Positions 20,725 to 63,982 of a DNA stretch of 64,000 nt are shown piece after piece. Position 1 is the stretch's first letter; each line of letters opens with the position of its first letter. The notes beneath the pieces were generated by a model. That model was not told the DNA's origin. It made no database searches and worked only from the letters and a program-made list of their open reading frames with translations. The position numbers were made by a program, and so were the translations under genes. Origin of the DNA: Candidatus Parcubacteria bacterium (GTDB lineage Bacteria; Patescibacteriota; Minisyncoccia; UBA9983); assembly GCA_003599625.1 (NCBI GenBank), contig QZIU01000008.1, positions 1,690-65,689 on the forward strand, in the 5' to 3' direction.

Positions 20725-20770
20725 CCTGTGGATAAACCTGTTGATAACTCAGCCAACATGCCGGGTTGGA
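20725..20770 (+). repeat. REP-like element copy between convergent genes (cctgtggataaacctgttgataactcagccaacatgccgggttgg)
   Basis: Family match. Overlaps the last codons of the minus-strand glycosyltransferase gene. Confidence 0.65.
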
Positions 20771-22089
20771 ATGAGGGAATATGCCGCGATGGTGTCGTCT
20801 AGCATTTTCTGGAGGGAGAATTTTGACAGGATTTTTTGGCGAAGATTGGCGGCGAATTGCTCGCGAAGATTTTTATCTTCCATCAGCTTTTTAATCGCTT
20901 CGGCTAGGGCTTCAGGATTTTTGGGTGGCGCCAAAATGCCTTCTTTTCCGTTATCTATGATCTCCGGTATGCCTCCGACGCTGGAAGCAATAACCGGCAA
21001 TCCGGCCAAGCCGGCTTCAAGTAACAGATAAGGCAGGCCTTCTTTGACGGAAGGCAAGACAAAAATATCAAGGGCTTTAAGATAATTGGCCGAGTTCGGA
21101 TCAGACAATTCGTTTTTACCGATTATAAAAAATTTATCTCCAATTTCGTAATTCTTGATTCTTGATTCATAATTCTTTTTTTCTTCCCCCCAGCCAATAA
21201 GGATAGTCGTCAAGCGATAGCCTCTAGCCGCTAGCGAATGGATCGCTTCGATCAAGTTTATGTGTCCTTTGTTTTTGGTAAACTCGCCAATGGTGCCGAT
21301 AAGGTGGTCTGATAAATTTGCCGACCTTCCCCGCCCGCTATCGCCAGCGAAGCGTGGCGGGCGGGCAGGTTGAAGACAACCAGCTTGCCCCGCCAAATAC
21401 GGCGGGGGCAGGACTTCAAATTTATCAGACTGCGATTTATAATTTGCCGCAAGCTCCTCTCTTGCCCTTTCTTTTTCCAAGAAATTATAATCCTCCTGTT
21501 TGATTCCGTTATGTATTACTGTCATTTTTCTTGCCGGAGCGATTTTGTTTTTTATCGCCTCTCTATAATCATTTTCCGAGACACAGATTATTTTGTCGTA
21601 AAAAAGACAAGTCAACCTACTGATCATTTTTATAAGTATGTTTTGCCAGCGGAGCCGGTCTTCGAGAAAGGCCCAACCGTGAACTGTAAACACAGTGGAA
21701 AGTTGAAAGTGGAAAGTTGAAAGTTTATAAACAAAACAAGCCAATCCCGCAGCTCCGCCTGCTTTGGAGCTGGACACATGAACAATGTCAGGCCTTGTTT
21801 TCAAAAGAAGAAAAAAAACTTCAACAGAAGAAAAAATATCTTTTAAGAAATTTACATTTCTTTGAAAATTTTTAATTTCAAAATAGGGCAAGTTGGCCCC
21901 TGTCAGCCTTTGGGCCATCAGGCCTCTTCCGCCTCCCGCGATAATCGGCTCAAATTGATCCTTTGGCAGATTTGTCGCCAGGTCGAAAACATATTTCTGA
22001 GCCCCGCCCCAGACCGACTTGGTTATGATATATAAAACCTTCTTTTTCGTTGATTTTTCGGGCATTTTATTATACCGTAAGGATACCAT
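20749..22089 (-). CDS. Glycosyltransferase family 1 (GT-B fold; GT4-like)
   Basis: C-terminal EGLPYLLLEAGLAGLPVIASSVGGIPEII motif. Carries two in-frame repeat insertions (21309-21429 and 21695-21726). The start (22089 or 22065) overlaps the divergent neighbour. Confidence 0.8.
   Translation of the reverse strand: MVSLRYNKMPEKSTKKKVLYIITKSVWGGAQKYVFDLATNLPKDQFEPIIAGGGRGLMAQRLTGANLPYFEIKNFQRNVNFLKDIFSSVEVFFLLLKTRPDIVHVSSSKAGGAAGLACFVYKLSTFHFQLSTVFTVHGWAFLEDRLRWQNILIKMISRLTCLFYDKIICVSENDYREAIKNKIAPARKMTVIHNGIKQEDYNFLEKERAREELAANYKSQSDKFEVLPPPYLAGQAGCLQPARPPRFAGDSGRGRSANLSDHLIGTIGEFTKNKGHINLIEAIHSLAARGYRLTTILIGWGEEKKNYESRIKNYEIGDKFFIIGKNELSDPNSANYLKALDIFVLPSVKEGLPYLLLEAGLAGLPVIASSVGGIPEIIDNGKEGILAPPKNPEALAEAIKKLMEDKNLREQFAANLRQKILSKFSLQKMLDDTIAAYSLIPTRHVG
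21309..21429. repeat. Second copy of the GC-rich palindromic element, with 12-13-bp TIRs (tctgataaatttg/caaatttatcaga)
   Basis: Core ccgaccttccccgcccgctatcgccagcgaagcgtggcgggcgggcaggttgaagacaaccagc is near-identical to the reverse complement of 18583-18634. Confidence 0.65.
21695..21726. repeat. Heptamer-periodic tract (gtggaaa gttgaaa)x2, 28 nt plus gttt, inside the GT gene
   Basis: Direct reading. Encodes STFHFQLSTV in frame. Confidence 0.8.
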
Positions 22090-22096
22090 ATTTATG

Positions 22097-23263: not shown

Positions 23264-23310
23264 AAAAGCGAGTGGAGTTATAATATTATGGACAGTTAAG
23301 TCCATAATAA

Positions 23311-24646: not shown

Positions 24647-24686
24647 GCAGGAGAGTCTTGTATTTTTAACACTTCGCGTTAATTCT

Positions 24687-25703
24687 ATGATAACCGGCAA
24701 AAATATCTTAATCTGTACCGGAATTTATCCGCCGGATGTGGGCGGACCGGCAAAGTATGCCCTTAATCTTGAGCAAGAATTTTTAAGAATGGGGCACAGC
24801 GTCAAGGTGTTGGCTTATGGGGTAGAGAAAAAAATGCCAATAGGCATAAGACATGTTTGGTATTTTTTGAGAACGATTTTTGCCTTGGCGAAAGTCGATT
24901 TGATCATCGGTTTGGATATTTTTTCAACGGGTTTTCCGGCGGTTTTGGCGGGCAAGATTTTCGGCAAAAAAACTATTTTGCGCGTGGGCGGCGATTTCCT
25001 CTGGGAAACCTATGTCGAATCGACCGGCAATCTTATAAAGCTCAAAGATTTCTACGCAAATCAACCGCCGCTTTCTTTGAAATTCAAAATCATCGCGTTC
25101 CTCCAAAAATTCGCGCTAAAAAACGCGACGGTTTTGGCGTTTAATACAAAGTGGCATGCTGAGATTTTTGAAAAAGTGTATGAATTAAAAAAGGATGCAA
25201 TATTTATTGTAGAAAACTTTTATAAAAAAGAAAAAGAAACCAGTCCTTATTCTAGAAAGAATTATATTTTTGCGGGGCGTTTAATTAAACTTAAAAATAC
25301 AGAAGCTTTGTCTTCCGCTTTTGAAGAAGCAAAAAAAGAAAGAAAAGATATAGAATTAGAAGTGATTAGTGATATGCAGCAAAAAGAATTACTAGAGCAA
25401 ATTAAAAATTGCTACGCCGTTATACTTGTTTCAATTTCGGATGTAAATCCGAACATTATAGGCGATGCTGTAAGATTCGGCAAGCCTTTTATAGTTACCA
25501 AAGAAACTGGTTTGCCTGAAAAAGTAAAAAATATGGGACTCCTGGTAGACCCATTAGACCAGAAAGATATTAAAGAAAAAATAATAAAATTATTAAATAC
25601 TGATACTTATGAAGAATATCGTCAAAGAATTATCTCCTCGGATTTTGCGCATTCATGGAATGATATTGCAAAAGAGTTTCTGGAGATTTATAAAAATTTA
25701 TGA
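24687..25703 (+). CDS. Glycosyltransferase (GT-B-like)
   Basis: N-terminal GIYPPDVGGPAKYALNL motif and C-terminal ETGLPEK region typical of GT1/GT4 enzymes. Confidence 0.6.
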   Translation: MITGKNILICTGIYPPDVGGPAKYALNLEQEFLRMGHSVKVLAYGVEKKMPIGIRHVWYFLRTIFALAKVDLIIGLDIFSTGFPAVLAGKIFGKKTILRVGGDFLWETYVESTGNLIKLKDFYANQPPLSLKFKIIAFLQKFALKNATVLAFNTKWHAEIFEKVYELKKDAIFIVENFYKKEKETSPYSRKNYIFAGRLIKLKNTEALSSAFEEAKKERKDIELEVISDMQQKELLEQIKNCYAVILVSISDVNPNIIGDAVRFGKPFIVTKETGLPEKVKNMGLLVDPLDQKDIKEKIIKLLNTDTYEEYRQRIISSDFAHSWNDIAKEFLEIYKNL

Positions 25704-27910
25704 AAATTTTAAGTATAGGCACGGACAGAAAAATATTTGATGAGAATTCTGAAGTTAGAAAGAGAGTTATTGAATATGGCAAATTGGCGGAAGAATTACA
25801 CATCGTAATTTTAACTCAAAAGTCAAAAGTCAAAACTCAAAACGACAAATCAAAACTTAGTATATCAAATAATGCGTTTATTTATCTGACAAATTCAAGA
25901 AATAAATTATTTTATATTTTTGATGCAATAAAAATCGGCAAAAAAATAATTGAAAATTGGAAATTGAAAATTGAAAATTCAAGTGACAAGCCTCTTGTCA
26001 CTTGCCAGGATCCTTTTGAAACCGGCTTTATTGGTTGGAGAATTGCGAGAAAATTCAAATTGCCGTTGCAACTACAGGTTCATACCGATTTTTTAAGCCC
26101 ATATTTCTGGAAGGAATCTTTTTTAAATAAAATCCGAGTTTTGCTGGGGAAATTTTTAATCAAACGCGCGGATAGCATCAGGGTTGTGAGCGAAAGAATC
26201 AAACAATCTTTGCTACAAGCTACAAGCTACAAGCTACAAACTAAAGTAACCGTACTTCCGATTTTTGTAGATACGGAAAAAATAAAAAATACGCCGATCA
26301 AAACCGACCTCCATAAAAAATATCCCCAATTCGATTTCATTATTCTGATGGCCTCGCGCTTCAGCAAAGAGAAAAATATTGAGCTGGCGATCGGGGCATT
26401 CAGCGAAGTTGTTAAAATTCATCCAAAAGTCGGCTTAATCATCGTCGGTTCCGGCCAGGAAAAACAGAATTATGAACCTGCCTGCCGGCGAGGCAGGTCA
26501 AGAATAAAGAAAGAATTGCAGAAGAATATAATAATAGAGAATTGGACGGACGATCTAGCTTCTTATTACAAAACTACTGACCTGTTTTTGCTAACCTCCA
26601 ATTATGAAGGCTATGGCAGGACTTTGGTTGAAGCTGCCGCAGTTGGCTGCAAAATCATTTCCAGCGATGCCGGCGTCGCGCCGGAAATTTTGGAAAAAGA
26701 AAATATTTTCGCCGTAGGGGATAAAAATGGTTTAATCCAGAAACTTATTGCCGCTCTTTCTGGCAGTATTAAAGAAACTAAAACGATTCCAACAAAGACA
26801 AAAGAAGAATATTTAAAGGAGTATAAAGAAATTTGGGAATCTGCAGGAAAGAGAAAACCAAAAATTTTAATCGTTACCCAAAAAGTTGATATCAACGACG
26901 ATGTCCTGGGTTTTTTCCACGATTGGCTGAGCAAAATGGCAGAATCGGCCGATTTGGTTGTTGTTGCAAATTCTGTCGGAAGATATGAGTTGCCGGAAAA
27001 TGTAAAGATTTTCTCTTTGGGTAAGGAAAGGGGAGCGGGGAAGCTTGCAAAGTTTTTTAAATACCAGTTCTTGCTATTGAAATTCTTGCCAAAGTCAGAC
27101 GGCATATTTTACCACATGTGCCCGGAGTATGTATTTTCGGCGGGACTTTGGCCGAAAATATTCAGGAAAAAAACCTTGCTATGGTATACTCATAAGGCGG
27201 TTAACTGGAAACTCAAATTGGCGGAAAAATTGATTGACGGGGTATTTACCGCCTCAAAAGAGAGTTTCAGATTGCCTTCAAAAAAAGTCGAGATTACGGG
27301 GCATGGGATAGACCTCGAAAAATTTTCAATTTTCAATTTTCAATTTTCAAAAAAAGACAAAAAGACTAATGATAAATTTAGAATCATAAGTGTGGGGAGG
27401 ATCGCGCCGGTGAAGAATTATGATTTGTTGATAGATGCCGCGGAGATATTGAAAAATAAGAATTTTAGCGCGGGAAATTGGGAAATCAAAATTGCCGGAT
27501 CGCCGGCTTTAGAGAGCGACAAAATTTATTTTGAAAGACTGAAAGAAAAGATCCGAGAAAAAAAACTGGAAGATGAAATAATTTTTGTCGGCCCCATTCC
27601 AAACAAAGATATTGTGGATTTTTACCAAAAAGGCGATCTGTTTGTAAATTTTAGCGATACTGGCAGCTTGGATAAAGCGGTGCTTGAGGCCATGGCTTGC
27701 GGATTGAAGATTCTGACTTCGAATGAGGCGTTTGCAAGAATGATTCCTGAAGAAGATTTTACTAAGAATGACGCTGGTTCAATCGCCAATAAAATATTTA
27801 ACTTATCTCAAAAAGAAAATAATTCAGATCTGCAACTATTTGTTGTAGAAAAACATAACCTTGCTAATTTGATTAAAAATGTCGTGAATTTTTATAGAGA
27901 GACTATCTAG
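25700..27910 (+). CDS. Tandem two-module glycosyltransferase family 1 protein (two GT-B units)
   Basis: Two E-x7-E-type C-terminal GT1 motifs (EGYGRTLVEAAAVGCKIISS and GSLDKAVLEAMACGLKILTS). Carries four short-repeat insertions. Confidence 0.8.
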   Translation: MKILSIGTDRKIFDENSEVRKRVIEYGKLAEELHIVILTQKSKVKTQNDKSKLSISNNAFIYLTNSRNKLFYIFDAIKIGKKIIENWKLKIENSSDKPLVTCQDPFETGFIGWRIARKFKLPLQLQVHTDFLSPYFWKESFLNKIRVLLGKFLIKRADSIRVVSERIKQSLLQATSYKLQTKVTVLPIFVDTEKIKNTPIKTDLHKKYPQFDFIILMASRFSKEKNIELAIGAFSEVVKIHPKVGLIIVGSGQEKQNYEPACRRGRSRIKKELQKNIIIENWTDDLASYYKTTDLFLLTSNYEGYGRTLVEAAAVGCKIISSDAGVAPEILEKENIFAVGDKNGLIQKLIAALSGSIKETKTIPTKTKEEYLKEYKEIWESAGKRKPKILIVTQKVDINDDVLGFFHDWLSKMAESADLVVVANSVGRYELPENVKIFSLGKERGAGKLAKFFKYQFLLLKFLPKSDGIFYHMCPEYVFSAGLWPKIFRKKTLLWYTHKAVNWKLKLAEKLIDGVFTASKESFRLPSKKVEITGHGIDLEKFSIFNFQFSKKDKKTNDKFRIISVGRIAPVKNYDLLIDAAEILKNKNFSAGNWEIKIAGSPALESDKIYFERLKEKIREKKLEDEIIFVGPIPNKDIVDFYQKGDLFVNFSDTGSLDKAVLEAMACGLKILTSNEAFARMIPEEDFTKNDAGSIANKIFNLSQKENNSDLQLFVVEKHNLANLIKNVVNFYRETI
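25814..25856 (+). repeat. Heptamer-periodic tract (NNcaaaa)x6 inside the GT gene
   Basis: ctcaaaa gtcaaaa gtcaaaa ctcaaaa cgacaaa tcaaaac, in frame (QKSKVKTQNDKSKL). Confidence 0.75.
25951..25978 (+). repeat. (gaaaatt)x4, 28 nt, reverse complement of the aattttc tract, in frame
   Basis: Direct reading. Unit 2 is ggaaatt. Confidence 0.85.
26212..26239 (+). repeat. (gctacaa)x4, 28 nt, in frame (LQATSYKLQ)
   Basis: Identical to 22777-22804. Confidence 0.9.
27321..27348 (+). repeat. (aattttc)x4, 28 nt, in frame (FSIFNFQFS)
   Basis: Identical to the intergenic tract at 1660-1687. Confidence 0.9.
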
Positions 27911-28218: not shown

Positions 28219-29268
28219 ATGAAAAACAAGATACTTATCACGGGCGGGGCTGGATTTATCGGAGTTAATTCGGCCAGGCGTTTTTTAAAAAATGGCTGGG
28301 AGGTGCATATTTTAGACAATTTTTCCCGCAGGGGAACAGATCTGAATATCGAAAAGTTAAAGAACGAGTATTCAACATCCAAGCTAAAAATAATTAAAGC
28401 TGATATAGTAAAAGATTATTCTGTATTATGCGTCGCGGTCTCTGATGTTGACGTTGTTCTTCATTTGGCCGCGCAAGTTGCCGTAACTACTTCGGTGGCC
28501 AATCCCAGGCATGATTTTGAGACTAACGCCATAGGATCTTTCAATGTCCTTGAAGCTGTCAGGTTGTCTGACAATAAGCCCATCGTTCTATATTCTTCCA
28601 CAAACAAAGTTTACGGCTGCCTCGAACATCTGCCGGTCAAAGAATTTGATAAGCATTATCAATTCCACGATAAAGAAATACATAAATACGGAGTCCATGA
28701 GAACGTAAATTTGGATTATCATTCTCCTTATGGTTGCAGCAAAGGAATAGCTGACCAATATTTTATTGATTACAACAGAATATACGGACTTAAAACGGTT
28801 GTTTTCAGGCAATCGTGCATATACGGACCTCACCAGTTTGGAATAGAGGATCAAGGTTGGGTGGCTTGGTTTACCATTGCCAGTATGTTGGAAAGGGGTA
28901 TTAATATTTATGGAACGGGTAAACAGGTAAGGGATTTATTATTTGTGGACGATCTCTCACGGTTATATGAGTTGGCTATAGAAAAAATAAATAAAACTGC
29001 CGGGAAAGCTTATAATATCGGCGGCGGTCCTGAAAATAAGCTATCATTATTGCAATTCCTGGATAAACTCATGTCGCATATGGGCAGGGAAATCCCATTG
29101 GCGTATTCTGACATAAGATCCGGCGACCAGCCTATTTTTATCGCTGACACCAGAAAGGCTTTTAACGAAATCGGTTGGAAACCGGAATACGATTTTAATG
29201 AAGGCTTTGATGCAATGTCGGAGTGGGTTAAAGGGAATAGAGGAATATTTAATAGTTTCTTCAATTAA
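28219..29268 (+). CDS. NAD-dependent sugar-nucleotide epimerase, CDP-paratose 2-epimerase (Tyv/RfbE)-like SDR
   Basis: GGAGFIG Rossmann motif, YSSTNKVYG, and catalytic YGCSKGxADQY. Strong overall resemblance to the CDP-tyvelose epimerase family. Confidence 0.8.
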   Translation: MKNKILITGGAGFIGVNSARRFLKNGWEVHILDNFSRRGTDLNIEKLKNEYSTSKLKIIKADIVKDYSVLCVAVSDVDVVLHLAAQVAVTTSVANPRHDFETNAIGSFNVLEAVRLSDNKPIVLYSSTNKVYGCLEHLPVKEFDKHYQFHDKEIHKYGVHENVNLDYHSPYGCSKGIADQYFIDYNRIYGLKTVVFRQSCIYGPHQFGIEDQGWVAWFTIASMLERGINIYGTGKQVRDLLFVDDLSRLYELAIEKINKTAGKAYNIGGGPENKLSLLQFLDKLMSHMGREIPLAYSDIRSGDQPIFIADTRKAFNEIGWKPEYDFNEGFDAMSEWVKGNRGIFNSFFN

Positions 29269-54682: not shown

Positions 54683-55772
54683 ATATAAGTTTAACAATCT
54701 TGTCGGGTACATAAGGGGATTGAAATATTTGCGGAGAGCCGTGCTAAAAAAGAGTGGGACGCCGCTTTACTTGATTTTTTTCATAACGAGCAAATGCAAT
54801 TTGCGTTGTAAACATTGTTTTTATTGGAAAGAACTAAATAAAGAGGAAAAATTCCTGAGCCTTGAAGAAATTCAGAAAATATCATTAAGCATGGAAGATT
54901 TGCCTTACTTGCGTTTAACCGGCGGCGAACCAAGTTTAAGGCCAGACTTTCCTCAAATTGCCGAAATATTCTACAAAAATAACAACCTGATAAATTTAGG
55001 GATAAACACTAATGGTTTTTTTACAGAAAAAATAATTGCAGGAGTCCAACAAATATTGGAGAAATGCCCAGATCTTAACGTTGATGTTTGTGTAAGCCTG
55101 GATGATACCCGAAAAGGTCATGATAATAATAGAGGCGTGGCTGGGACATATGATAATGCCGTCAATACTTTGCTTAAACTTAATAAATTAAGAGAAATTT
55201 ATCCCAAAATGAAGACGGTAATCGGATTGGACTTAAACAAAAGCAACCAAGACCGTTTGGCCTTAATCTTTGAGGAAATAAAGGCTCTGGATGTAAGTTA
55301 TATTTGCGACACGGTAGTCCGGGGGGATCCCAAAGAACCAGCCATCAAAGATGTTAAGATGAGTAATTATAAAACGCTCAATGATTTAGTGGGTTCTTAC
55401 AATATAAAAAGACAACACCACGCCTACTTTAATATAAACGCTAAGGATAAGATGGTCGAAGAAGCGGTTTTAAAAGCCAGAGTGGAAAATAAATGGTGGG
55501 GTTTTAATTGCACGGCGGGTGTAAACGCCGGAGTAATTTACGCGGATGGCGCTGTTTTCCCATGCGAGGGGAGGAATGAAAAAATAGGCAACATAAGAGA
55601 TTATAATTATGATTTTAAAGAACTTTGGAACTCCGAAGAAAATCAAAAAATAAGGGAAACGATCAAAAAAGGCAGGTGTCATTGCACCCATGAAAACTTC
55701 ATAACAGCCAGTATTTTTTCAAGTCCTTACGCTTTAATAAAACTTTTGTTTAAGGCTTTTAGAGACAATTAA
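54675..55772 (+). CDS. Radical SAM enzyme with C-terminal SPASM/twitch-like Cys cluster
   Basis: SKCNLRCKHCFY radical SAM motif plus a C-terminal cysteine cluster CTAG...CEG...CHCTH. Confidence 0.75.
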   Translation: MNEYKFNNLVGYIRGLKYLRRAVLKKSGTPLYLIFFITSKCNLRCKHCFYWKELNKEEKFLSLEEIQKISLSMEDLPYLRLTGGEPSLRPDFPQIAEIFYKNNNLINLGINTNGFFTEKIIAGVQQILEKCPDLNVDVCVSLDDTRKGHDNNRGVAGTYDNAVNTLLKLNKLREIYPKMKTVIGLDLNKSNQDRLALIFEEIKALDVSYICDTVVRGDPKEPAIKDVKMSNYKTLNDLVGSYNIKRQHHAYFNINAKDKMVEEAVLKARVENKWWGFNCTAGVNAGVIYADGAVFPCEGRNEKIGNIRDYNYDFKELWNSEENQKIRETIKKGRCHCTHENFITASIFSSPYALIKLLFKAFRDN

Positions 55773-55870: not shown

Positions 55871-56575
55871 ATGAAAGTTGTTATTTTAGCTGCTGGAGAA
55901 GGAAGAAGGATGCGTCCTATAACGCTTGAAAGACCAAAACCGCTCATTAAAATAAACAACAAGCCTATTCTCTCTCATATCCTTGAATCTCTTCCAAAGG
56001 AAGTAGAAGAAGTTGTGCTGGTTGTAAGGTATCTGGCTGAAAAAATTAAAAATTTTTTTGGCAGAGAATTCATGGATCGTAAAATAAGTTATGCTGCCGG
56101 TTCTCCTCTGGGGACCGCTCATAGTTTCCTGGCGGCAAGTAAATCCATCGGAAGAGAAGAAAGATTCTTGGCACTCTATGGTGACGAGTTGGTTTTAAAA
56201 GAGGATATAGAAAATTGCCTCAAAGAAAGATTTTCTGTAATAGTTTTTAAATCGGAAAAACCATGGGCGGGTGGAGTCGCGAAGATTGATCAAAGCGGCT
56301 ATCTGATAAATATTGAGGAGAAACCGGAGAATCCATCCTCTGATATGGTGGCAGGCGGAATAATGGTTATTGACGGAGGAATTTTTGAGTGTGAGGCTGC
56401 AAGGGGAGCAAAAGGGGAGTATTATCTATCAGCTTTGCTGGCTCAGTTTGCCAAAAAAAAGAAAGTAAAAGCTGTTATTTCAGAAGAATTTTTAGGGGAC
56501 ATAACAACCCCTGAAGATATTAAAAGAATAGAATTGAAGATGAAATTGAGAGAACTAAGAAAGGAGGAAGCATGA
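55871..56575 (+). CDS. Sugar-phosphate nucleotidyltransferase (HddC/GmhD-like heptose-1-phosphate guanylyl/nucleotidyltransferase)
   Basis: ILAAGEGRRMRPITLERPKPL NTP-transferase motif. Operon context with hddA/gmhA/gmhB. Confidence 0.7.
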   Translation: MKVVILAAGEGRRMRPITLERPKPLIKINNKPILSHILESLPKEVEEVVLVVRYLAEKIKNFFGREFMDRKISYAAGSPLGTAHSFLAASKSIGREERFLALYGDELVLKEDIENCLKERFSVIVFKSEKPWAGGVAKIDQSGYLINIEEKPENPSSDMVAGGIMVIDGGIFECEAARGAKGEYYLSALLAQFAKKKKVKAVISEEFLGDITTPEDIKRIELKMKLRELRKEEA

Positions 56576-57543
56576 TTATTACAAAAACGCCATTCCGTAT
56601 CTCTTTGGGAGGCGGGGGAACGGATCTACCTTCCTATTGCAGGAATTTCGGCGGGTTTATATTTGGCGTAGCCATCAATCTTTACTTTAAAGTTTTTGTC
56701 ACAAAACCTGTGATAGATGAGGATGTGCATGTTAGATATTCCCAATATGAGGCGGTGGCACATCATTGTGATCTTAAGCACAATATCAGCAGAGAGTCGC
56801 TAAAAATGCTAGGCGTTTCAGCCAATATAGACATTACTTTCCAAAGCGATACGCCGGCAGGGACCGGACTTGGCTCTTCTGGAAGTTGCGCCGTCGGTCT
56901 TTTAAATGCTCTTCATTGCTTTAAAGAAAGACCCGTCTCTCAGGAAAAATTGGCCCAAGAAGCTTTCAAGGTTACGCAGAATCTTGGTTGGCCTGACGGA
57001 GCTCAAGATCCTTATCTAGCTGCGTTAGGAGGCTTTGTTGTACTGGAGATCGATAAAAGTAATAATGTTACTTTCTATCACCCTGAGATTGCGGAAGAAA
57101 CGGTTAAAAGATTTCTGAATCAAACACTGCTTTTCTATACGGGGGTCAGGAGAAATAGCGCTGATGTCTTAGGGCAGCAGGACCGAAAAAAAGCCATCGA
57201 GGCAAAGCATATAACCAAAGAGATTGGTCTTGATATCTTAAAAAATTTCGAATTGGGAGATTTAGATCGATTTGGGGTTAATATGCGCAAACATTGGGCG
57301 CTTAAAAAGCAGATGTCAAGCAACATAAGCTCGGATTATTTTGACAGTATTTACGACCTGGCCATAAAAAATGGCGCTATGGGCGGAAAATTAATAGGAG
57401 CGGGCGGGGGAGGATATTTCCTTTTTTACTGCTCTGGAGAAAAGATTGGCGGAGTAAAAAAAATATTGTCTGAAAACGGGTTAAGACAGGTAGCTTTTGG
57501 GATTGATTATCAAGGCACGAGATTTTTGGACGTTGATTTTTGA
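56572..57543 (+). CDS. GHMP kinase, D-glycero-D-manno-heptose 7-phosphate kinase (HddA)-like
   Basis: GHMP motif PAGTGLGSSGSCAVG and the characteristic N-terminal ISLGGGGTDLP. Confidence 0.75.
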   Translation: MIITKTPFRISLGGGGTDLPSYCRNFGGFIFGVAINLYFKVFVTKPVIDEDVHVRYSQYEAVAHHCDLKHNISRESLKMLGVSANIDITFQSDTPAGTGLGSSGSCAVGLLNALHCFKERPVSQEKLAQEAFKVTQNLGWPDGAQDPYLAALGGFVVLEIDKSNNVTFYHPEIAEETVKRFLNQTLLFYTGVRRNSADVLGQQDRKKAIEAKHITKEIGLDILKNFELGDLDRFGVNMRKHWALKKQMSSNISSDYFDSIYDLAIKNGAMGGKLIGAGGGGYFLFYCSGEKIGGVKKILSENGLRQVAFGIDYQGTRFLDVDF

Positions 57544-57567
57544 AAATTACAGAAAGGAAGACGCAAT

Positions 57568-58176
57568 ATGACGAATAAATACATTCTAAAATACTGTTCT
57601 GAATCTGTCGCTTGTATTATGGACTTAAAAAAATGCGCCGCAAAAATTGACCAGATAGTTGAAAATCTTTCTGATGCGTGGAAAAAAAGAAGAAATGTTT
57701 TTGTCATAGGGAATGGAGGATCGGCTTCTACGGCAACTCATTTTGCGGCAGATTTGATGAAGACAACAACAGATTCACCTTCAGGTGCTGGCATAAAAGC
57801 TATTTCTTTGGACAATGTTCCTTTAAATAGCGCGATCATAAACGACTGGGGGAAAGAACAACTCTTTTTTTGTCAACTGAATGCGTTATTTAATCCGGAG
57901 GATTTACTTGTTGTTTTTAGCGTGCATGGCGGCGCGGGCAGTGACAAAGCTGGCTTGTGGTCTCAAAATCTTGTTCAAGCTATTAATTTTGCAAAAGATA
58001 AAAGAGGCTTGACGATCGGATTTTCCGGGTTTGACGGCGGAATAATGGCAAAGATTTGCGACATATCCTTGGTGGTTCCTGTTAATTCCACGCCATTGGT
58101 AGAATCTTTTCATCTTTGGTTGTCACACCTGATCACATTTCGTTTAAAGGAGCTTATGAATGAGAGACAAATGTAG
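57568..58176 (+). CDS. gmhA: Phosphoheptose isomerase (SIS domain)
   Basis: VFVIGNGGSASTATHFAADL SIS signature. Confidence 0.85.
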   Translation: MTNKYILKYCSESVACIMDLKKCAAKIDQIVENLSDAWKKRRNVFVIGNGGSASTATHFAADLMKTTTDSPSGAGIKAISLDNVPLNSAIINDWGKEQLFFCQLNALFNPEDLLVVFSVHGGAGSDKAGLWSQNLVQAINFAKDKRGLTIGFSGFDGGIMAKICDISLVVPVNSTPLVESFHLWLSHLITFRLKELMNERQM

Positions 58177-58750
58177 AAAGAGAGCTGTTTTTATTGATAG
58201 AGACGGTGTAATCAACAAACTTGTGCATAGGCCTGGAATTGATGTGTGCGGAAGACGAATTTGTTATTCGGCCCCATGGAGTTACAGAGAGCTTGAAATA
58301 TATCAGGAAACAAAGAGTTCCTTAGATGCCTTAGGAAGGTTAAATTTACTCAAATTTCTGGTAACTAATCAGCCTGACATAGGATACGGTTTACTGCCAC
58401 GGGAAGAGCATAATAAAATTATGGCGGACATCTTCGCTCTTGGTTTTGATGATATTTTTATTTGCTTCCACGGAAGGCATGAAAATTGCAATTGCAAAAA
58501 ACCAAAACCTGGAATGCTGATAGAAGCGGCTCGGAAATGGAATATAGACCTGGGGAATTCTTATATGGTTGGCGATTCTGTTTCTGACATGGAGGCCGGT
58601 AAGTCTGTCGGATGTAAGACTTTGCTCGTAAGCGATTCTTTGAAGACAATTTGCAATAAATATGATTTTGTTGCGAAAAATATTTTGGAGGTGGCAAGGA
58701 TTATAGAGAAGAACGAAAGGAGAAAGAGAAACGATGGAAATTTTTATTGA
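58160..58750 (+). CDS. gmhB: D,D-heptose 1,7-bisphosphate phosphatase (HAD-IIIA)
   Basis: DRDGVIN motif I plus the Zn-binding Cys cluster C...CxC. Confidence 0.8.
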   Translation: MRDKCRKRAVFIDRDGVINKLVHRPGIDVCGRRICYSAPWSYRELEIYQETKSSLDALGRLNLLKFLVTNQPDIGYGLLPREEHNKIMADIFALGFDDIFICFHGRHENCNCKKPKPGMLIEAARKWNIDLGNSYMVGDSVSDMEAGKSVGCKTLLVSDSLKTICNKYDFVAKNILEVARIIEKNERRKRNDGNFY

Positions 58751-59468
58751 TTCGGCCAATCTTGAAGAGATAGAAGAGGCTCTTAAGCGAGGGTTTATAA
58801 GAGGCATTACAACGAATCCTTCAATTGTCGCGAAAGAAGAAAAAACGGACTTTAATTCATTGTTAATTAAGATAGGAGAGCTGATTAAAAAATACAGGCC
58901 AAATACTCACTTGAGCATTGAAGTTTTTTCAAAAGTACCTGAAGAAATTGAGAGACAGGCTAAGGAGTTTCAAAAAATTCTTAATCTGCCGGAACTAAGC
59001 ATCAAAGTGCACATTGGTTGGGACGAACTTGAGATCATTAGAAAATTGGCAAAGGATGGTTTTAGTGTTAATTGCACGTGTTGCATGACAGTAACTCAGG
59101 CCATTATGGCCGCTGCCGCCGGATCAAAGTATGTTTCTCTTTTTTGGGGAAGGATACGGGATGGAGGTCAAGATGAAAACTTCAAAGAAGAGAGGGATAA
59201 AGTTATAAAAGAAAAAACTTTAAGAGAAGAAGATTTTGATCCTGCTCTCGTTGTGAAGAAAGTCAAAAAATTTCTAACGCAAAATTATTCAGAAACTAAA
59301 TTAATAATCGGAAGCATTCGCTCTGCCTCTGATATTATGGATGCGGGCTTTTGCGGAGCGGATATTGTCACGATTCCTCCGAAATTATTTCCGGGAATGA
59401 TTAATCACTTTAAAACAGATGAAGTGATTAATCAGTTTTTGACTGATTTTCAAGCCTGGTTAAAGTGA
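58734..59468 (+). CDS. Transaldolase / fructose-6-phosphate aldolase family
   Basis: MEIFIDSANLEEI...GITTNPS signature plus Schiff-base Lys region. Confidence 0.8.
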   Translation: MEIFIDSANLEEIEEALKRGFIRGITTNPSIVAKEEKTDFNSLLIKIGELIKKYRPNTHLSIEVFSKVPEEIERQAKEFQKILNLPELSIKVHIGWDELEIIRKLAKDGFSVNCTCCMTVTQAIMAAAAGSKYVSLFWGRIRDGGQDENFKEERDKVIKEKTLREEDFDPALVVKKVKKFLTQNYSETKLIIGSIRSASDIMDAGFCGADIVTIPPKLFPGMINHFKTDEVINQFLTDFQAWLK

Positions 59469-59521: not shown

Positions 59522-60454
59522 ATGATATCCATTATTTTCCCCGCGTACAATGAAGAAGATAATGTCAATTTGCTTCATGCCAGAATAAAAGAAGCCATGG
59601 TCTCTGTTGGTATGGAATATGAAATCATAGCGGTTGACAACGGATCTACCGACGGCACGCTTCGGAAACTAAAAGAACTATCTCCTATAAAGATAATTGA
59701 AATAGCAAAAAATATAAATCAAACAACCGGAATAGATGCCGGAATTAAAAATGCCGAAGGTGATATAATTATATTGATAGATGGGGACAGGCAAAATGAT
59801 CCAGCTGATATTCCGAAACTTTTGAATAAGCTCAATGAAGGTTTTGACATAGTTTCGGGGTGGCGTCTTAAAAGAGAAGATATTTGGTTAAGAAGATTTG
59901 TTTCATTGTTGGCAAACTGGATTACATATAAAATGACCGGGCTTCGTTTGCATGATTATGGTTGCGCTTTAAAAGCTTACAGGAAAGATATTCTAAATAA
60001 TATATCATTGTATGGAGAAACTCACGCTTTTCTTCCGGCCATTCTCTTTATGAAAGGTGCGATGGTTGCAGAAATACCAGTAAATCATTTTCCAAGAATA
60101 AATGGGAAATCAAAAGTAAAATTTTCCGGATTATTTAAAAATATTGGGGATTTGCTGTCTGTTGTTTTTTTACAGAAACACATGAGGAGGCCGTTGGTTT
60201 TTTTCGGCACTTGGGGAATAACGAGCATCTTTTTAGGAATTATTGCCGCGATTGCCGCGATTGCCTTAAAAATTCTTCAAGTGAGAAATTTGGCCCAAAC
60301 TCCCTTGCCCGTAATAGCTTCACTTTTTTTTATTATGGGTTTCATATTTTTTATGTGGGGTTTTTTAGGGGAAATGATGGCAAAAATCTATTTTGAAGGG
60401 AAGGACAGGACCCCTTACCTTATAAGAAGAATAACAAAAATCAGCTCTTCTTAA
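59522..60454 (+). CDS. Glycosyltransferase family 2 with C-terminal TM helices (polyprenyl-phosphate glycosyltransferase-like)
   Basis: ISIIFPAYNEE...VDNGSTDGT, DGD motif, two C-terminal TM helices. Confidence 0.8.
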   Translation: MISIIFPAYNEEDNVNLLHARIKEAMVSVGMEYEIIAVDNGSTDGTLRKLKELSPIKIIEIAKNINQTTGIDAGIKNAEGDIIILIDGDRQNDPADIPKLLNKLNEGFDIVSGWRLKREDIWLRRFVSLLANWITYKMTGLRLHDYGCALKAYRKDILNNISLYGETHAFLPAILFMKGAMVAEIPVNHFPRINGKSKVKFSGLFKNIGDLLSVVFLQKHMRRPLVFFGTWGITSIFLGIIAAIAAIALKILQVRNLAQTPLPVIASLFFIMGFIFFMWGFLGEMMAKIYFEGKDRTPYLIRRITKISSS

Positions 60455-60467
60455 GAAGAGCTGATGG
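60439..60467. terminator. Bidirectional hairpin between convergent genes
   Basis: Perfect 13-bp inverted repeat atcagctcttctt/aagaagagctgat overlapping the stop codon. Confidence 0.55.
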
Positions 60468-60477
60468 GCTTAATAAC

Positions 60478-61479
60478 TTAGATTATTTTTCTTGAGAGAA
60501 TTGATTGTTTTGTTCTTAAGGCCATTTCAAGCACAGTTTTACCTTGTTCCAAATCCACCAGCTCCTCTGCCTTCCCTGAAAGTGCTTTAAGAAAATGCGA
60601 CATTATTTCAATGTACATCATATTTCTTTCATAGCCAGCTGGCTCATTAATAATTTCTTCATTGCCTTCCATTGGTATAATCTTAGCTTCCTTTTTGAAA
60701 TAATCCCAACGGATTCTCCCTTTTGCCCCTGTGATTTCTATGAATCTGCTCGGCGGTTTTTTGAAATAATCCACATGAAGGGAAGCGATGACGCCGTTTG
60801 GAAATTGCATAATGCTTTTTGCCATATCCTCAACTTCAATATCAAGATTGCTTAGTTTCCCTCCAGTCGCAAAAATCCATTCCGATTTGCCGAATAGAGA
60901 ATAAAGCATATCAAGTTCATGGCTTTGAGTCAGAACCACACCTCCGCCAAGATCTTCACGGCTAGCATATGACGCGCGGTAGTCTTCCCAGGGATGCCAA
61001 TCAGTTAATCTTTCCGCCATTTCCATGTGGACGCATAAGACTTTGCCAATCCTCTCCTCGTTTAACCATTTTTGGATTTGCTTAAACAGGGGATGAAAAC
61101 GTAGTTGATAAGCAACAAAAACTTTCAATCTCTTCCTTTCCGTAATTTTCTTTAGGTCGTCCACTTTTTCCAATGAATGCGATATTGGTTTTTCCAAAAA
61201 AATATGACATCCTGCTTGTGCCGCGGTTATGGCCATAGGAATGTGAAGAGAAGTGGGGTTTGTTATTATTGCCGCTGTCGGTTTTTCTTTTAATGCGTCA
61301 TCAATAGAGTAGAATACTGGATGTTTGCCGCCGTGTTCGGATAAAACTTTGTCTCCGAAGTTTTTTGTTCCCTTGCCGGTTCGGTAAATAAGAATGTCTT
61401 CACATTTTACACCCAGCTTTTCCAAGTTTTCCAAGTGCCTTTTTCCGATACTTCCCAGTCCGCAGATTAAAAATTTCAT
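60478..61479 (-). CDS. Gfo/Idh/MocA-family NAD(P)-dependent oxidoreductase
   Basis: N-terminal Rossmann MKFLICGLGSIGKRH and the family's EKP motif. Confidence 0.85.
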   Translation of the reverse strand: MKFLICGLGSIGKRHLENLEKLGVKCEDILIYRTGKGTKNFGDKVLSEHGGKHPVFYSIDDALKEKPTAAIITNPTSLHIPMAITAAQAGCHIFLEKPISHSLEKVDDLKKITERKRLKVFVAYQLRFHPLFKQIQKWLNEERIGKVLCVHMEMAERLTDWHPWEDYRASYASREDLGGGVVLTQSHELDMLYSLFGKSEWIFATGGKLSNLDIEVEDMAKSIMQFPNGVIASLHVDYFKKPPSRFIEITGAKGRIRWDYFKKEAKIIPMEGNEEIINEPAGYERNMMYIEIMSHFLKALSGKAEELVDLEQGKTVLEMALRTKQSILSRKII

Positions 61480-61506
61480 TTTTTTCTCCTTGAATTAATT
61501 TGTTTT

Positions 61507-62331
61507 TTACCAAACAGTTTGTCCGCCGTCTGCCGTTACAATACTGCCAGTGATAAAAGAGGAAGCATCTGAACAGAGGAAAAGAATCAATCCGTTGTAT
61601 TCATCCGGCTTTGCAGGCCGCCCTAACATGTTTCTTTGACCTAATTTGGCCAAAAATTCCGGTTCCATTGATCCGAAATTAACGGCTCCCAGGCATACGG
61701 AATTTACTCGCACATTTGGAGCAGTGGAAGCAAAATAAGCCGCCCAACTTCTCGTTAAACCCAACAATGCTGTTTTTACCACCGGGTAAGCAGCCGATTT
61801 AAATTTGCCTTTCTCATACTTCCGATGGTCTGGAGCTGTGATTGCCGAAGTGGAAGCAATGTTAAGTATAATCCCGCTGTTTTGTCTTATCATGTGGCGA
61901 GCTGAGGCTTGGGTGCAATACATTGCGCCGTTTAGACCGATATCAAATTCTTTAAGCCATAAACTTTGCGGGTAGTCTTCATGAGGAAGCCAACATTCGC
62001 TTCCTGTTGAATCAGCATCTTTGCCCACCTTTGGATTAAAAGCGGCATTATTAATAAGAATATCCACTGAACCGTATTTTTGTTCAACAATATCAGTGGC
62101 TCGGAAAACATCATCTTTTTTGGTAATGTCAACTTTTTCTTGTTGAATATTCTTACCCAAAGCGTTGTTTATGACCACATCAAAAGAAACGACATTAGCC
62201 CCTGCTTTTTTAAGGGCTGTGACATATTGAACACCTAGTCTTCCTGCCCCACCTGTTATGATGGCAGTCATACCTTGGAGAGAAAACAAATTTGCAATGA
62301 AATCCCTGTCCAATTTTTTATTTAATGCCAT
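61507..62331 (-). CDS. Short-chain dehydrogenase/reductase (SDR)
   Basis: TGGAGRLG cofactor motif, NNAAF, catalytic YxxxK. Confidence 0.85.
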   Translation of the reverse strand: MALNKKLDRDFIANLFSLQGMTAIITGGAGRLGVQYVTALKKAGANVVSFDVVINNALGKNIQQEKVDITKKDDVFRATDIVEQKYGSVDILINNAAFNPKVGKDADSTGSECWLPHEDYPQSLWLKEFDIGLNGAMYCTQASARHMIRQNSGIILNIASTSAITAPDHRKYEKGKFKSAAYPVVKTALLGLTRSWAAYFASTAPNVRVNSVCLGAVNFGSMEPEFLAKLGQRNMLGRPAKPDEYNGLILFLCSDASSFITGSIVTADGGQTVW

Positions 62332-62346
62332 TCTTAGTCTCCTTTC

Positions 62347-63150
62347 CTAAATTTGCGTCAGTATTGAATTAATGTAATTAAAGTATCTTGAATTTAAATC
62401 AAAGTCGTTTACTTTATTCTGTCTTGCCCCATGAATTATCATCGGGCCGCTAAATCTAATTTCCTTAAGAGCTTGTAAAGTTTTCTGGAAATCTACGCAC
62501 CCAGTGCCAATAGGCACTGTCTCTCCTTTGTTGGCCAATCTGTCTTTGATATGAATGCCAAAAATCATTTTGTTGATCTTAAGAATTTCCGCCGCCGTGT
62601 CCGCCCCTATGCTTGCCATATTGCCGATGTCGTAATAAGAACCCACGAAAGAGGAATCAAAGGAATTGATTATTTCCAATAGGTCATCTGCCATTAGTTC
62701 TGTTTCTATTCCTAATCTAACACCCGTTTTTTCACAGGTGTCCAAGCAAGAGCTTATCAAACGCGCCGCATCCTTTTTTACCGATAAATCGGTGAGAAGA
62801 TTGTTATGGAAAAAAGGGATAAGCACTGTTTTTGCGCCAATCATTGCTGCTTGCTTAATAAGGTGATTAAGAGTCTCAGGATAATCAGTTGATCTTAAAA
62901 AAAATCCGTGTACTGAATCAATCTCGATACCTGAGGCATCTGCTATGTCCTTAATTTTCGTTACTCCTTTTTGTTCCATGAATGGATTGTTTTTGATTGT
63001 ATGATCGTTCTTAATCAGTAACTCAACATGGCTAAAGCCGATCCCTTTGGCAAGTCTAAATTCATTTTGCCAATTATCTGTCGGAAAAAACTGTATTCCT
63101 CTGCCGTTTGACGGGGTCAATCTTCCTTGCAAAATTCCTATTTTTAACAT
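62347..63150 (-). CDS. Sugar phosphate isomerase/epimerase (xylose isomerase-like TIM barrel)
   Basis: Length and the pattern of conserved acidic/His residues. Operon with the SDR and the oxidoreductase. Confidence 0.6.
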   Translation of the reverse strand: MLKIGILQGRLTPSNGRGIQFFPTDNWQNEFRLAKGIGFSHVELLIKNDHTIKNNPFMEQKGVTKIKDIADASGIEIDSVHGFFLRSTDYPETLNHLIKQAAMIGAKTVLIPFFHNNLLTDLSVKKDAARLISSCLDTCEKTGVRLGIETELMADDLLEIINSFDSSFVGSYYDIGNMASIGADTAAEILKINKMIFGIHIKDRLANKGETVPIGTGCVDFQKTLQALKEIRFSGPMIIHGARQNKVNDFDLNSRYFNYINSILTQI

Positions 63151-63262
63151 TAAGATTACTCTCCTTTCTCTAAGAATTTATTATTAACTTGTTAAAATAC
63201 ATGATATAATACTGATACTTAATAACATTATTTCCTTAATCAGTCAAATTATAAAGAATCGC

Positions 63263-63982
63263 ATGGATTATAAAGATTTTAAGGTGGGATATACCGAAGA
63301 TAGTTTTTGGCTAAAAAGCAAGAAATTTCTGATCGAAAATCTAGCGCAAAAAGTTAGCCATGGTCAAACAAACTTAAGGATTTTAAATATCGGCGCGGGT
63401 ATGGGGGGCGACCTCGAAATTTTGGCAAAGTTTGGACGTAATTATGTTTTAGATGTGGAGGCGGGAGCTGTGGATTCGATTGATGACAATCTTTGCGAAG
63501 AGAAAAAAGTTGCTGATGCCTGCGATATTCCTTACGGAGATAATCTTTTTGATTTGGTCATTGCTTCGGATGTGTTGGAGCACATTAAGGATGACAAGAA
63601 AGCCGTATCTGAAGTCTATAGGGTTTTAAAACATGGAGGAACCTTTATTTTTATGGTGCCCGCCTTCCAGTTCCTTTTTAGCAGCCATGATAAGGCGCTT
63701 GGTCATTATAGGAGATACAGCAAAGAAACTGTAAAAAATTTAATCGGAAATTTCAGAAATCTGAAAATTTTTTATTGGAATTCATTACTTTTACCGCCCA
63801 CATTTATTTTAAGGCTTATGAAGAAAAAGTCGGAGCCCAAGATTGATTATATTGCAATGCCTAATTTCTTAAATTTTTGTTTATTTAAAATAATTTCGAT
63901 AGACAATTTCTTAATTAAAAAGGGAATATCGCCATTTATCGGAATGAGCCTGGTCGGTTACTGTCAGAAGAAACAGTCGTGA
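63263..63982 (+). CDS. Class I SAM-dependent methyltransferase
   Basis: ILNIGAGMGGDL motif I and LKHGGTFIF. Confidence 0.75.
   Translation: MDYKDFKVGYTEDSFWLKSKKFLIENLAQKVSHGQTNLRILNIGAGMGGDLEILAKFGRNYVLDVEAGAVDSIDDNLCEEKKVADACDIPYGDNLFDLVIASDVLEHIKDDKKAVSEVYRVLKHGGTFIFMVPAFQFLFSSHDKALGHYRRYSKETVKNLIGNFRNLKIFYWNSLLLPPTFILRLMKKKSEPKIDYIAMPNFLNFCLFKIISIDNFLIKKGISPFIGMSLVGYCQKKQS

Follow-up and report, generated by a model that had tools for sequence, protein, structure and literature searches.

What kind of glycan is built by a nearly unbroken run of carbohydrate genes in a Parcubacteria genome, and what do the radical S-adenosylmethionine (SAM) enzymes encoded among its glycosyltransferases (GTs) do there? 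The genes in question occupy positions 20749-63982 of a 64,000-nucleotide stretch (hereafter the window) from a Candidatus Parcubacteria metagenome-assembled genome of the candidate phyla radiation (CPR)/Patescibacteria (GCA_003599625.1, contig QZIU01000008.1, positions 1,690 to 65,689). Pfam and NCBIfam profile scans of all 39 open reading frames (ORFs) within this island show two modules in which genes for a family 2 glycosyltransferase (GT2), a radical SAM enzyme with a B12-binding domain and a GT-C transferase stand together: GT2b-RS1-GTC1, and GT2a-U530-RS2-GTC2, which is followed by a methyltransferase and GTC3 (coordinates in Table 1). The clustering of B12-domain radical SAM genes with GT-C genes, which the initial annotation of the window had singled out as a cassette not described before, is real and recurs across loci, and full-text literature searches gave no paper on it. 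With even confidence, we read the locus as an envelope glycan island that works by multi-component transmembrane glycosylation of the GacI/J/K/L, Wps or GtrB/GtrA/Gtr* type, in which carrier-linked sugars would be modified by radical SAM enzymes.

The GT2 enzymes of both modules, as well as a third one (GT2c) encoded further downstream, are closest in sequence to polyprenyl- and dolichyl-phosphate sugar synthases (DPMS, ArnC, GtrB and AglJ). GT2a matched DPMS (PDB 5mlz, 1e-13 over the full length; residues 1-271) and ArnC among PDB sequences, and its best NCBIfam match was AglJ, with 139 bits across the full length. The best PDB match of GT2b was also DPMS 5mlz (7e-22), in addition to ArnC, and its NCBIfam matches were AglJ (110 bits), ArnC (81 bits) and PpgS (65 bits). 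GT2c is clearly ArnC-like, with PDB matches to ArnC (3.9e-46) and GtrB (5e-30) and 167 bits to the ArnC family of NCBIfam. Dolichyl-phosphate hexose transferase and PgfS are further NCBIfam neighbours of the three enzymes. GT2a shows two C-terminal transmembrane (TM) helices and GT2c three hydrophobic segments, two of them forming a C-terminal hairpin; GT2b has no TM helices, an architecture like that of WpsA, GacI and PpgS, and no GacJ/WpsB-like partner was identified in the window. The metal- and diphosphate-binding motif DxDxQ is a hallmark of the polyisoprenyl-phosphate GT2 group (PMC10821137), and the GT2c motif, DGDRQ, conforms to it. Polyprenyl phosphate would be the acceptor of GT2a, GT2b and GT2c.

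RS1, RS2 and a third enzyme, RS3, show a Radical_SAM domain (PF04055, 89.7-99.9 bits) and a B12-binding domain (PF02310; 66.8, 50.7 and 51.5 bits, respectively, with a cutoff of 32.1), and a fourth radical SAM enzyme has a SPASM domain, in agreement with the three B12-binding and one SPASM-type enzymes that had been annotated. The cysteines of the CxxxCxxC motif are invariant across the RS1 family (C203/C207/C210) and in 70 of 70 RS2 orthologues (C218/C222/C225), a set of sequences from bacteria and archaea. In the same set, three additional cysteines of RS2 are invariant in 69-70 of the 70 sequences: C27 and C29, which lie in the "B12-binding" domain (YGCWCKGKR), and C310. These may coordinate an auxiliary Fe-S cluster or serve as thiols in catalysis. 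The best named relatives of RS1-RS3 are HpnJ, BchE, PhpK-type enzymes and AprD4, every one below its cutoff: RS2 scores 290.7 bits over the full length and RS1 191.9 bits against HpnJ (cutoff 577.6), and the best NCBIfam match of RS3 is TIGR04013 (135 bits; cutoff 251). AprD4 is the closest solved structure (E-values of 1e-36, 1e-39 and 5e-16 for RS1, RS2 and RS3, at low identity), followed by MgmA (9ccb). Housekeeping roles of the HemN, LipA or MiaB kind are ruled out by the NCBIfam matches, and this disposes of the HemN-like or LipA-like identity against which the initial annotation had advised a check.

All three GT-C candidates pass the PMT_2 gathering score of Pfam (26.1), GTC2 with 61.1 bits, and GTC1 and GTC3 marginally, with 28.2 and 30.3 bits. 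A crude hydropathy analysis predicted nine, eight and ten TM segments in GTC1, GTC2 and GTC3, respectively, and inspection by eye found an acidic loop-1 motif right after the first TM helix in each: WIDEG in GTC1, EVDARAYD in GTC2 and AWDEG in GTC3. By sequence and topology, the three proteins are probable GT-C transferases, as had been annotated, rather than unrelated membrane proteins. GTC2 is 38% identical to a PMT_2 protein encoded directly 3' of the RS1 gene in another locus, L163. A PDB sequence search with GTC2 gave no match, and for GTC1 an alignment of only three sequences led to an unusable AF2 model (predicted local distance difference test, pLDDT, of 38).

The soluble protein of 530 residues that separates GT2a from RS2, U530, gave a confident AF2 model (pLDDT 88.7, predicted template modelling score 0.91). 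Its predicted fold is an (alpha/alpha)6 toroid followed by a beta-sandwich, which resembles carbohydrate epimerases, lyases and hydrolases. Foldseek matched the model to two-domain polysaccharide lyases (PL8, PL33, alginate lyase and heparinase III) and also to human dermatan-sulfate epimerase 1. About 738 cluster representatives among 1.84 billion match U530 at E<=1e-30. A soluble isomerase of Haloferax, AglQ, is required during assembly of a uronic-acid-rich glycan linked to dolichol phosphate, and the structural neighbours predicted for it (1fp3, GH88, YihS and YteR) coincide with those of the U530 model (PMC3827465). That the sugar of the RS2 module is a uronic acid is a reasonable guess, and only a guess, made because U530 recurs with AsnB and a nucleotide-sugar dehydrogenase-like gene is present in the island. 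U530 was also considered as a GT-C-like partner and dropped, given its (alpha/alpha)6 plus beta-sandwich fold and its lack of TM helices.

The RS2 module is found far beyond the Parcubacteria. RS1, RS2 and U530 themselves match NCBI proteins of a Candidatus Parcubacteria metagenome-assembled genome, encoded on a contig of 78,188 bp, with 100% identity. Full-length RS2 homologues with 52-75% identity were found in Parcubacteria, Falkowbacteria, Microgenomates, Omnitrophota, Planctomycetota, Brocadiia and Cyanobacteriota. A scan of GTDB species representatives, which do not include the source genome and where the best match is 66% identical, gave 79 loci with 39-66% identity in bacteria and archaea; these add Spirochaetes, Latescibacteria, Lindowbacteria, Desulfarculales and Clostridia among the bacteria, and Woesearchaeota, Nanoarchaeota, Aenigmatarchaeota and Methanosarcinales among the archaea. 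Gene neighbourhoods were counted in those 50 loci where three or more genes flank RS2 on either side. A membrane-anchored GT2 is encoded within five genes of RS2 in 45 of these 50 loci, within two genes in 39 and directly adjacent in 27; a U530 homologue is present in 27 of the 50, and so is a polytopic membrane protein (at least 400 residues and at least seven TM helices) in 27. AsnB is encoded near RS2 in 19 of the 79 loci, and class I methyltransferases are recurrent too. According to Pfam, 54 large membrane proteins encoded near RS2 include 20 PMT_2, 11 PMT, four STT3, four YfhO and two DUF6541 proteins. The GT2a partners of L001 and L002, from a Planctomycetota genome and an unclassified bacterial genome, are 58-59% identical to GT2a of the window. 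Neither BLAST nor phmmer linked the large membrane proteins adjacent to RS2 in these two loci to the GT-C enzymes of the window, and one of them shows a sub-threshold PMT_2 match in Pfam. Four archaeal loci, from DPANN and Methanosarcinales genomes, show an AglB/STT3 gene with the WWDxG motif near RS2; L030 and L034 have this gene directly upstream of the GT2-RS2 pair. This proximity links the archaeal RS2 module to N-glycosylation.

Members of the RS1 family from many lineages of Patescibacteria share 60-74% identity. In seven contexts of RS1 orthologues, a GT2 of about 230 residues is adjacent in six, and a PMT_2 gene lies directly downstream, as in the window, in three. The GT2b orthologue stands directly beside RS1 in L163 and L164 (64% identity), and the synteny of L164 with the window extends from a tetratricopeptide repeat (TPR) gene across the GT4 core as far as GT2b-RS1. 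Several RS1 loci contain three or four genes for B12-domain radical SAM enzymes together with several PMT_2 genes. In the window, L163, L167 and L168, the genes for the radical SAM enzyme and the GT-C enzyme touch or overlap. As a rough control, distant B12-domain radical SAM proteins from metagenomes (27-47% identity), obtained in a scan with the RS1 alignment and generic patterns, were considered. The association with GT2 is broad in this radical SAM clade and much tighter for the orthologues of RS1 and RS2, since in the control loci a GT2 gene was located within four genes in 11 of 28 and adjacent in only five of 28. In three metagenome loci (L099, L114 and L159), between three and five paralogues that encode B12-domain radical SAM enzymes follow one another, often accompanied by GT2 genes, and such arrays suggest a combinatorial expansion of the enzyme clade in uncultivated organisms.

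The pairing of polyprenyl-phosphate-type GT2 enzymes with radical SAM enzymes places the locus among the multi-component transmembrane glycosylation systems. In GacI/J/K/L and lactococcal Wps, the GT2 product is optionally extended, a Wzx- or GtrA-type protein flips it, and a GT-C enzyme transfers or polymerises it, all without a phosphoglycosyl transferase (PGT); the lactococcal PSP glycan is assembled on a lipid monophosphate (PMC10821137). GT2a, GT2b and GT2c, a Wzx-like flippase and GTC1-GTC3 share one co-directional array in the window. Among ORFs of at least 100 residues in the 64-kb window, there was no match to Bac_transf, to a PGT of the WecA type (Glycos_transf_4), to Wzy/Wzy_C, Wzz, a TagGH/ABC exporter or an LCP protein, and this lack of a PGT would fit assembly on a lipid monophosphate.

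In the proposed pathway, cytoplasmic enzymes would make nucleoside diphosphate (NDP)-sugars, by a route of the NDP-heptose type into which a transaldolase-family enzyme feeds, together with a short-chain dehydrogenase/reductase (SDR) and the dehydrogenase-like protein. GT2a, GT2b and GT2c would load single sugars onto polyprenyl phosphate, GT4 and GT2 enzymes may extend them, and methyltransferases, AsnB and a carbamoyltransferase would decorate them. The lipid-linked units would then be flipped by the Wzx-like protein and transferred by the three PMT_2 GT-C enzymes to an acceptor outside the membrane. Before flipping and GT-C transfer, RS1 and RS2 would modify a C-H position of the carrier-linked sugar of their partner GT2 by radical chemistry, be it a methylation, a deoxygenation or a rearrangement. 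In the RS2 module that sugar, which is plausibly a uronic acid, would also be a substrate of U530 and AsnB. What the analysis shows is the gene content, the families of the proteins and that the modules recur; we infer the polyprenyl-phosphate acceptor of the GT2 enzymes, the order of steps, the substrate and chemistry of the radical SAM enzymes and the final acceptor.

Editing of a sugar while it is linked to a lipid is known from ArnD and DprE1/DprE2, and AglQ offers another precedent. In ArnC/ArnD/ArnT, and in DprE1/DprE2 with Emb/Aft, a polyprenyl-phosphate sugar is edited in the lipid-linked state and then transferred by a GT-C enzyme; the editing enzymes are a deformylase and an oxidoreductase pair, respectively, and not radical SAM enzymes. 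A radical SAM precedent is given by HpnI, HpnK and HpnJ, in which a GT places a hexose(amine) on a lipid and the radical SAM enzyme HpnJ then remodels it, and also by calditol synthase, Cds (PMC13459092). The island differs from the HpnJ pathway in the scores of RS1 and RS2 given above, in the absence of hopanoid genes, in its lipid, which would be polyprenyl phosphate, and in that a GT-C enzyme follows.

The known multi-component systems (GtrA/GtrB/Gtr*, CsbB/GtcA/YfhO, GacI/J/K/L and WpsA/B-WpsG-WpsH/J) share with the island a polyprenyl-phosphate GT2 with or without TM helices, a flippase and a GT-C enzyme (PMC10821137). The island alone shows a B12-domain radical SAM gene between GT2 and GT-C in two modules, an epimerase/lyase-like protein in one of them and a CPR host; in turn, a small subunit of the GtrA or GacJ/WpsB type was not seen in it. 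The Agl pathway of Haloferax volcanii (AglJ, AglQ, AglP, AglM, AglF, AglD/R/S and AglB) offers further likenesses: AglJ is the best NCBIfam match of GT2a, the island nucleotidyltransferase and the dehydrogenase-like protein weakly match AglF and AglM, respectively, U530 and AglQ have common predicted structural neighbours, methyltransferases are present, and AglB occurs in archaeal RS2 loci. However, no radical SAM enzyme belongs to the Agl pathway, and the island shows PMT_2 proteins instead of AglB, a bacterial host and scores below the equivalog cutoffs. AprD4, which carries out the C3'-deoxygenation of apramycin, acts on a sugar, as RS1-RS3 would, and resembles them in its N-terminal Rossmann-like domain, but its substrate is a soluble pseudodisaccharide, it works with a reductase partner (AprD3) and it binds no cobalamin; RS2, for its part, has the three additional invariant cysteines.

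Several observations weigh against transmembrane glycosylation with radical SAM editing on the carrier. The family matches of GT2a, GT2b, GT2c and the radical SAM enzymes are all under the NCBIfam equivalog cutoffs, and the fifth residue of the motif in GT2a (DADDT) and GT2b (DADLE) departs from DxDxQ. No GtrA-type small flippase was found in the window. A recognisable GT-C gene lies near RS2 in only about half of the loci, the RS1 orthologue of L165 stands alone among housekeeping genes, and the neighbourhood statistics rely on crude ORF calling, BLAST labels against the window proteins and a hydropathy count of TM helices. On sequence data, the radical SAM enzymes are just as likely to act on NDP-sugars ahead of the GT2 step as on carrier-linked sugars. 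Cobalamin synthesis is usually beyond CPR bacteria. "B12" is, for RS1-RS3, a domain assignment only, because their nearest solved relative, AprD4, a diol dehydratase with a Rossmann-like domain, binds no cobalamin according to a 2026 review (PMC12931638). For the same reason, B12-dependent C-methylation by RS1-RS3 is not established, and neither is the C-methylation or epimerisation of the GenK/Fom3 type that the initial annotation had proposed.

The strongest competitor keeps the type of locus and moves the chemistry: the radical SAM enzymes would tailor NDP-sugars in the cytoplasm, as GenK, Fom3, DesII and AprD4 exemplify, and the partner GT2 enzymes would be specific for the product. The characterised sugar-modifying relatives that were found all use soluble substrates, including AprD4, the top PDB match of RS1-RS3, and a linkage between GT2 and radical SAM genes is equally expected if the GT2 consumes the product of the radical SAM enzyme. 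However, across the 79 RS2 loci no nucleotidyltransferase or other NDP-sugar gene is conserved beside the GT2-radical SAM pair, and HpnJ, the nearest NCBIfam family of both RS1 and RS2, works on a lipid-anchored sugar. We regard this cytoplasmic route as unlikely, if far from negligible. Going beyond the locus itself, RS1 and RS2 may represent a new functional class of radical SAM enzymes acting on carrier-linked monosaccharides, whose products (C-methylated, deoxygenated or rearranged sugars) would be delivered to the surface by GT-C enzymes (PMT_2 or YfhO in bacteria, with a link to AglB in DPANN and methanogens); the cassette would be an ancient, horizontally mobile add-on for radical editing in three-component glycosylation, widespread in uncultivated anaerobes. 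This generalisation is tentative, and we lean slightly against it.

A second alternative concerns the acceptor: the island would be a system dedicated to the O-glycosylation of the two large secreted proteins whose genes lie upstream, and these proteins would be S-layer- or pilin-like. Protein O-mannosyltransferases belong to the PMT_2 family, as do lipid- and polysaccharide-directed enzymes such as ArnT, which count against this alternative. The 1185-residue protein has a signal peptide, a PG_binding_1 domain and 28% Ser+Thr, and the 1066-residue protein a lamin-tail domain (LTD) and a right-handed beta-helix; Pfam found no S-layer or pilin domain in either. The presence of RS2 within a few genes of AglB in the four archaeal loci ties relatives of the module to protein glycosylation. 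However, the island is tied to the two upstream proteins by proximity only: in L164 the homologue of the TPR gene immediately neighbours the GT4 genes, and a counterpart of 15267-20715, the segment that encodes the 1066-residue protein among others, is absent between them. The upstream part of L164 is too short to judge a counterpart of the 1185-residue protein. We consider such a dedicated system improbable.

Very improbable, in our judgement, is that the GT2-radical SAM(-U530) genes make a modified glycolipid or a cyclitol-type head group by a ring contraction like that of HpnJ or Cds, with the GT-C enzymes as unrelated co-residents. HpnJ is the top-scoring named family of RS2, HpnJ and Cds both convert hexoses to carbocycles on lipids, and about half of the RS2 loci show no recognisable GT-C within five genes. 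The score of RS2 is, however, half of the HpnJ cutoff, and the contact or overlap of GT-C and radical SAM genes in four loci does not suggest unrelated residents. Furthermore, the cassette occurs in bacteria and archaea, whose membrane lipids differ and which would have polyprenyl-phosphate carriers in common. Finally, an ordinary O-antigen, capsule or teichoic acid cluster with incidental radical SAM genes, typical traits of which are the many GT4 and GT2 genes, the Wzx-like flippase, a weakly Glyphos_transf-like protein and a GC content below that of the flanks, is hardly credible, since no initiating PGT, Wzy, Wzz, ABC exporter or LCP ligase was found in the 64 kb, and since particular GT2 genes keep radical SAM genes as their partners in different phyla and domains of life.

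The conserved GT2-radical SAM(-U530)-GT-C modules are new to multi-component glycosylation and uncharacterised in the searchable literature: full-text searches found no publication that ties B12-domain radical SAM enzymes to polyprenyl phosphate, to GT-C enzymes or to glycosylation in CPR bacteria. The 2026 reviews of B12-dependent radical SAM enzymes (PMC12931638) and of lipid-modifying radical SAM enzymes (PMC13459092) include no such enzyme. CPR/Patescibacteria and DPANN are host-attached cells with almost uncharacterised surfaces, and the locus predicts an elaborate surface glycan with heptose, methyl, carbamoyl and amide groups. Two conserved pairs of a polyprenyl-phosphate-type GT2 and a B12-domain radical SAM enzyme, which span many phyla and both prokaryotic domains, have gone unstudied in that literature. 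Action of these enzymes on carrier-linked sugars would be a new class of reaction in glycoconjugate biosynthesis, and a sizeable group of class-B-like radical SAM enzymes that lack annotation would thereby gain a function. The GT2-radical SAM pairs are small and open to heterologous expression, and they provide a lead, whose functional steps are all inferred, to new radical SAM glycochemistry and to the surface biology of CPR and DPANN.

The remaining genes of the island agree with most of what had been annotated (Table 1). At least ten GT1/GT2 genes had been counted, and Pfam shows six GT4 and four GT2 genes; AsnB, the carbamoyltransferase and the Wzx-like flippase are also present. Only five class I methyltransferases were found in place of six. 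The SDR, which had been called CDP-paratose-epimerase-like, is generic, and its best match, dTDP-glucose 4,6-dehydratase, is below the cutoff. Of the full NDP-heptose pathway that had been described, the four enzyme types are present and adjacent, but all are below their equivalog cutoffs: HddC scores 89.6 (cutoff 300), HddA 147.7 (600) and GmhA 86.1 (209), and GmhB passes only the cutoffs of the HAD-IIIA subfamily and of the histidinol-phosphatase domain. We read this segment as a probable NDP-heptose-type sugar-nucleotide supply operon that has diverged from the named families, and the transaldolase-family enzyme could be a local source of sedoheptulose 7-phosphate. The two halves of the GT4-GT4 fusion are encoded by separate genes (about 355-373 residues) in the Patescibacteria loci L163 and L164, with 48-50% identity. 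The 3' end of the dehydrogenase-like gene overlaps the start of RS3 by 50 nt. Membership of the island is uncertain for the genes from 60478 onwards.

Table 1. Genes of the island and associated features, with positions in the window; positions preceded by a locus handle refer to that locus.
Position	Strand	Feature	Evidence or remark
10238-13795		Large upstream protein, 1185 residues	
13908-14597		TPR gene	Homologue in L164
17515-20715		Large upstream protein, 1066 residues	
20749-22089	-	GT4	Glycos_transf_1 133.9 bits; conserved core; L164 orthologue 37% identity
22019-23263	+	GT4	Glycos_transf_1 128.7 bits; L164 orthologue 43% identity
23311-24646	+	AbiEi-like antitoxin and AbiEii toxin	AbiEii 65.8 bits; AbiEi_4 weak, E=0.065
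24687-25703	+	GT4 (weak match)	Pfam
25700-27910	+	GT4-GT4 fusion, 736 residues	Pfam
28219-29268	+	Extended SDR, NDP-sugar epimerase/dehydratase	GDP_Man_Dehyd 158 bits, Epimerase 146 bits; no NCBIfam equivalog cutoff reached
29272-30369	+	GT4	Pfam
30393-31112	+	GT2b, 239 residues	GT2 domain, no TM helices
31124-32527	+	RS1, radical SAM	Radical_SAM 99.9 bits, B12-binding 66.8 bits
32511-33995	+	GTC1, PMT_2 GT-C	PMT_2 28.2 bits; start overlaps RS1 end
33977-35427	+	Two class I SAM methyltransferases	Pfam; starts at 33977 and 34783
35429-37303	+	AsnB, glutamine amidotransferase	Asn_synthase 260 bits; TIGR01536 428.7 bits, cutoff passed
37300-38118	+	Class I SAM methyltransferase	Pfam
38122-38997	+	GT2a	GT2, two C-terminal TM helices
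39003-40595	+	U530, 530 residues	No Pfam match; no TM helices
40607-42064	+	RS2, radical SAM	Radical_SAM and B12-like domain
42027-43394	+	GTC2, PMT_2/PMT GT-C	PMT_2 61.1 bits
43397-44002	+	Class I methyltransferase	Pfam; 46% identity with L166 orthologue
43999-45477	+	GTC3, PMT_2 GT-C	PMT_2 30.3 bits; 30% identical to GTC1
45474-46646	+	GT4	Pfam
46819-47748	+	Nucleotide-sugar dehydrogenase-like, 309 residues	GxGxxG and central domain kept; C-terminal UDP-binding domain gone
47699-48982	+	RS3, radical SAM	Radical_SAM and B12-binding
48979-50415	+	Wzx-like flippase (Polysacc_synt/MOP), 9 TM helices	Pfam, hydropathy
50416-51786	+	GT-B-like transferase	Weak BFO_1060 and Glyphos_transf-like matches
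51783-53621	+	NodU/CmcH-type carbamoyltransferase	Carbam_trans_C 218.5 bits
53666-54682	+	GT2d, 3 TM helices	Pfam, hydropathy
54675-55772	+	SPASM-domain radical SAM	Pfam/NCBIfam
55871-58750	+	Nucleotidyltransferase, HddA-like GHMP kinase, GmhA-like SIS isomerase, GmhB-like HAD-IIIA phosphatase	
58734-59468	+	Transaldolase/fructose-6-phosphate-aldolase (FSA) family	Last gene of the heptose-type operon
59522-60454	+	GT2c	ArnC/GtrB-like GT2
60478-63150	-	Gfo/Idh/MocA oxidoreductase, SDR, xylose-isomerase-like TIM protein	Generic sugar oxidoreductase/isomerase types
63263-63982 region	+	Class I methyltransferase	Pfam
L030:6010-9021		AglB/STT3 directly upstream of GT2-RS2	
L034:6034-9060		AglB/STT3 directly upstream of GT2-RS2	
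L049:5538-9020		AglB/STT3 near RS2	
L067:4002-6926		AglB/STT3 near RS2	

The window begins with housekeeping genes (1-9.7 kb), which encode a P-type ATPase, a pseudouridine synthase, L19, three tRNAs, NusG, L11, RecA and FtsK; these tRNAs are the only non-coding RNAs that Rfam and ARAGORN found in the window. The next segment (10.2-20.7 kb) contains genes for secreted or membrane-anchored proteins, with small single-TM proteins encoded between the two large ones, and carbohydrate genes run nearly unbroken from 20.7 kb to the window edge. Within them, 33 co-directional genes extend over 24687-60454, with only three gaps of more than 90 bp. A scan of 20-40 kb for promoters and terminators told little, given the AT-rich DNA (77 promoter-like sites, with 54 expected).

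Near 24 kb, precisely at the AbiEi/AbiEii pair, a GC content of about 0.45 gives way to one of about 0.37. This type IV toxin-antitoxin pair interrupts the array as an insertion at the GC boundary and does not belong to the glycan machinery. An AbiEii gene is also located two genes from the radical SAM gene in the RS1 locus L165 (L165:10200-10874).

The first 8 nt of the SPASM-domain radical SAM gene lie within the GT2d gene, which may be a third pairing of a GT2 with a radical SAM enzyme, and SPASM radical SAM genes are found near B12-domain radical SAM genes in L166 and L048 too. Between recA and ftsK, the minus strand encodes a membrane-anchored protein of 116 residues with a Glucodextranase_B domain (6282-6632).

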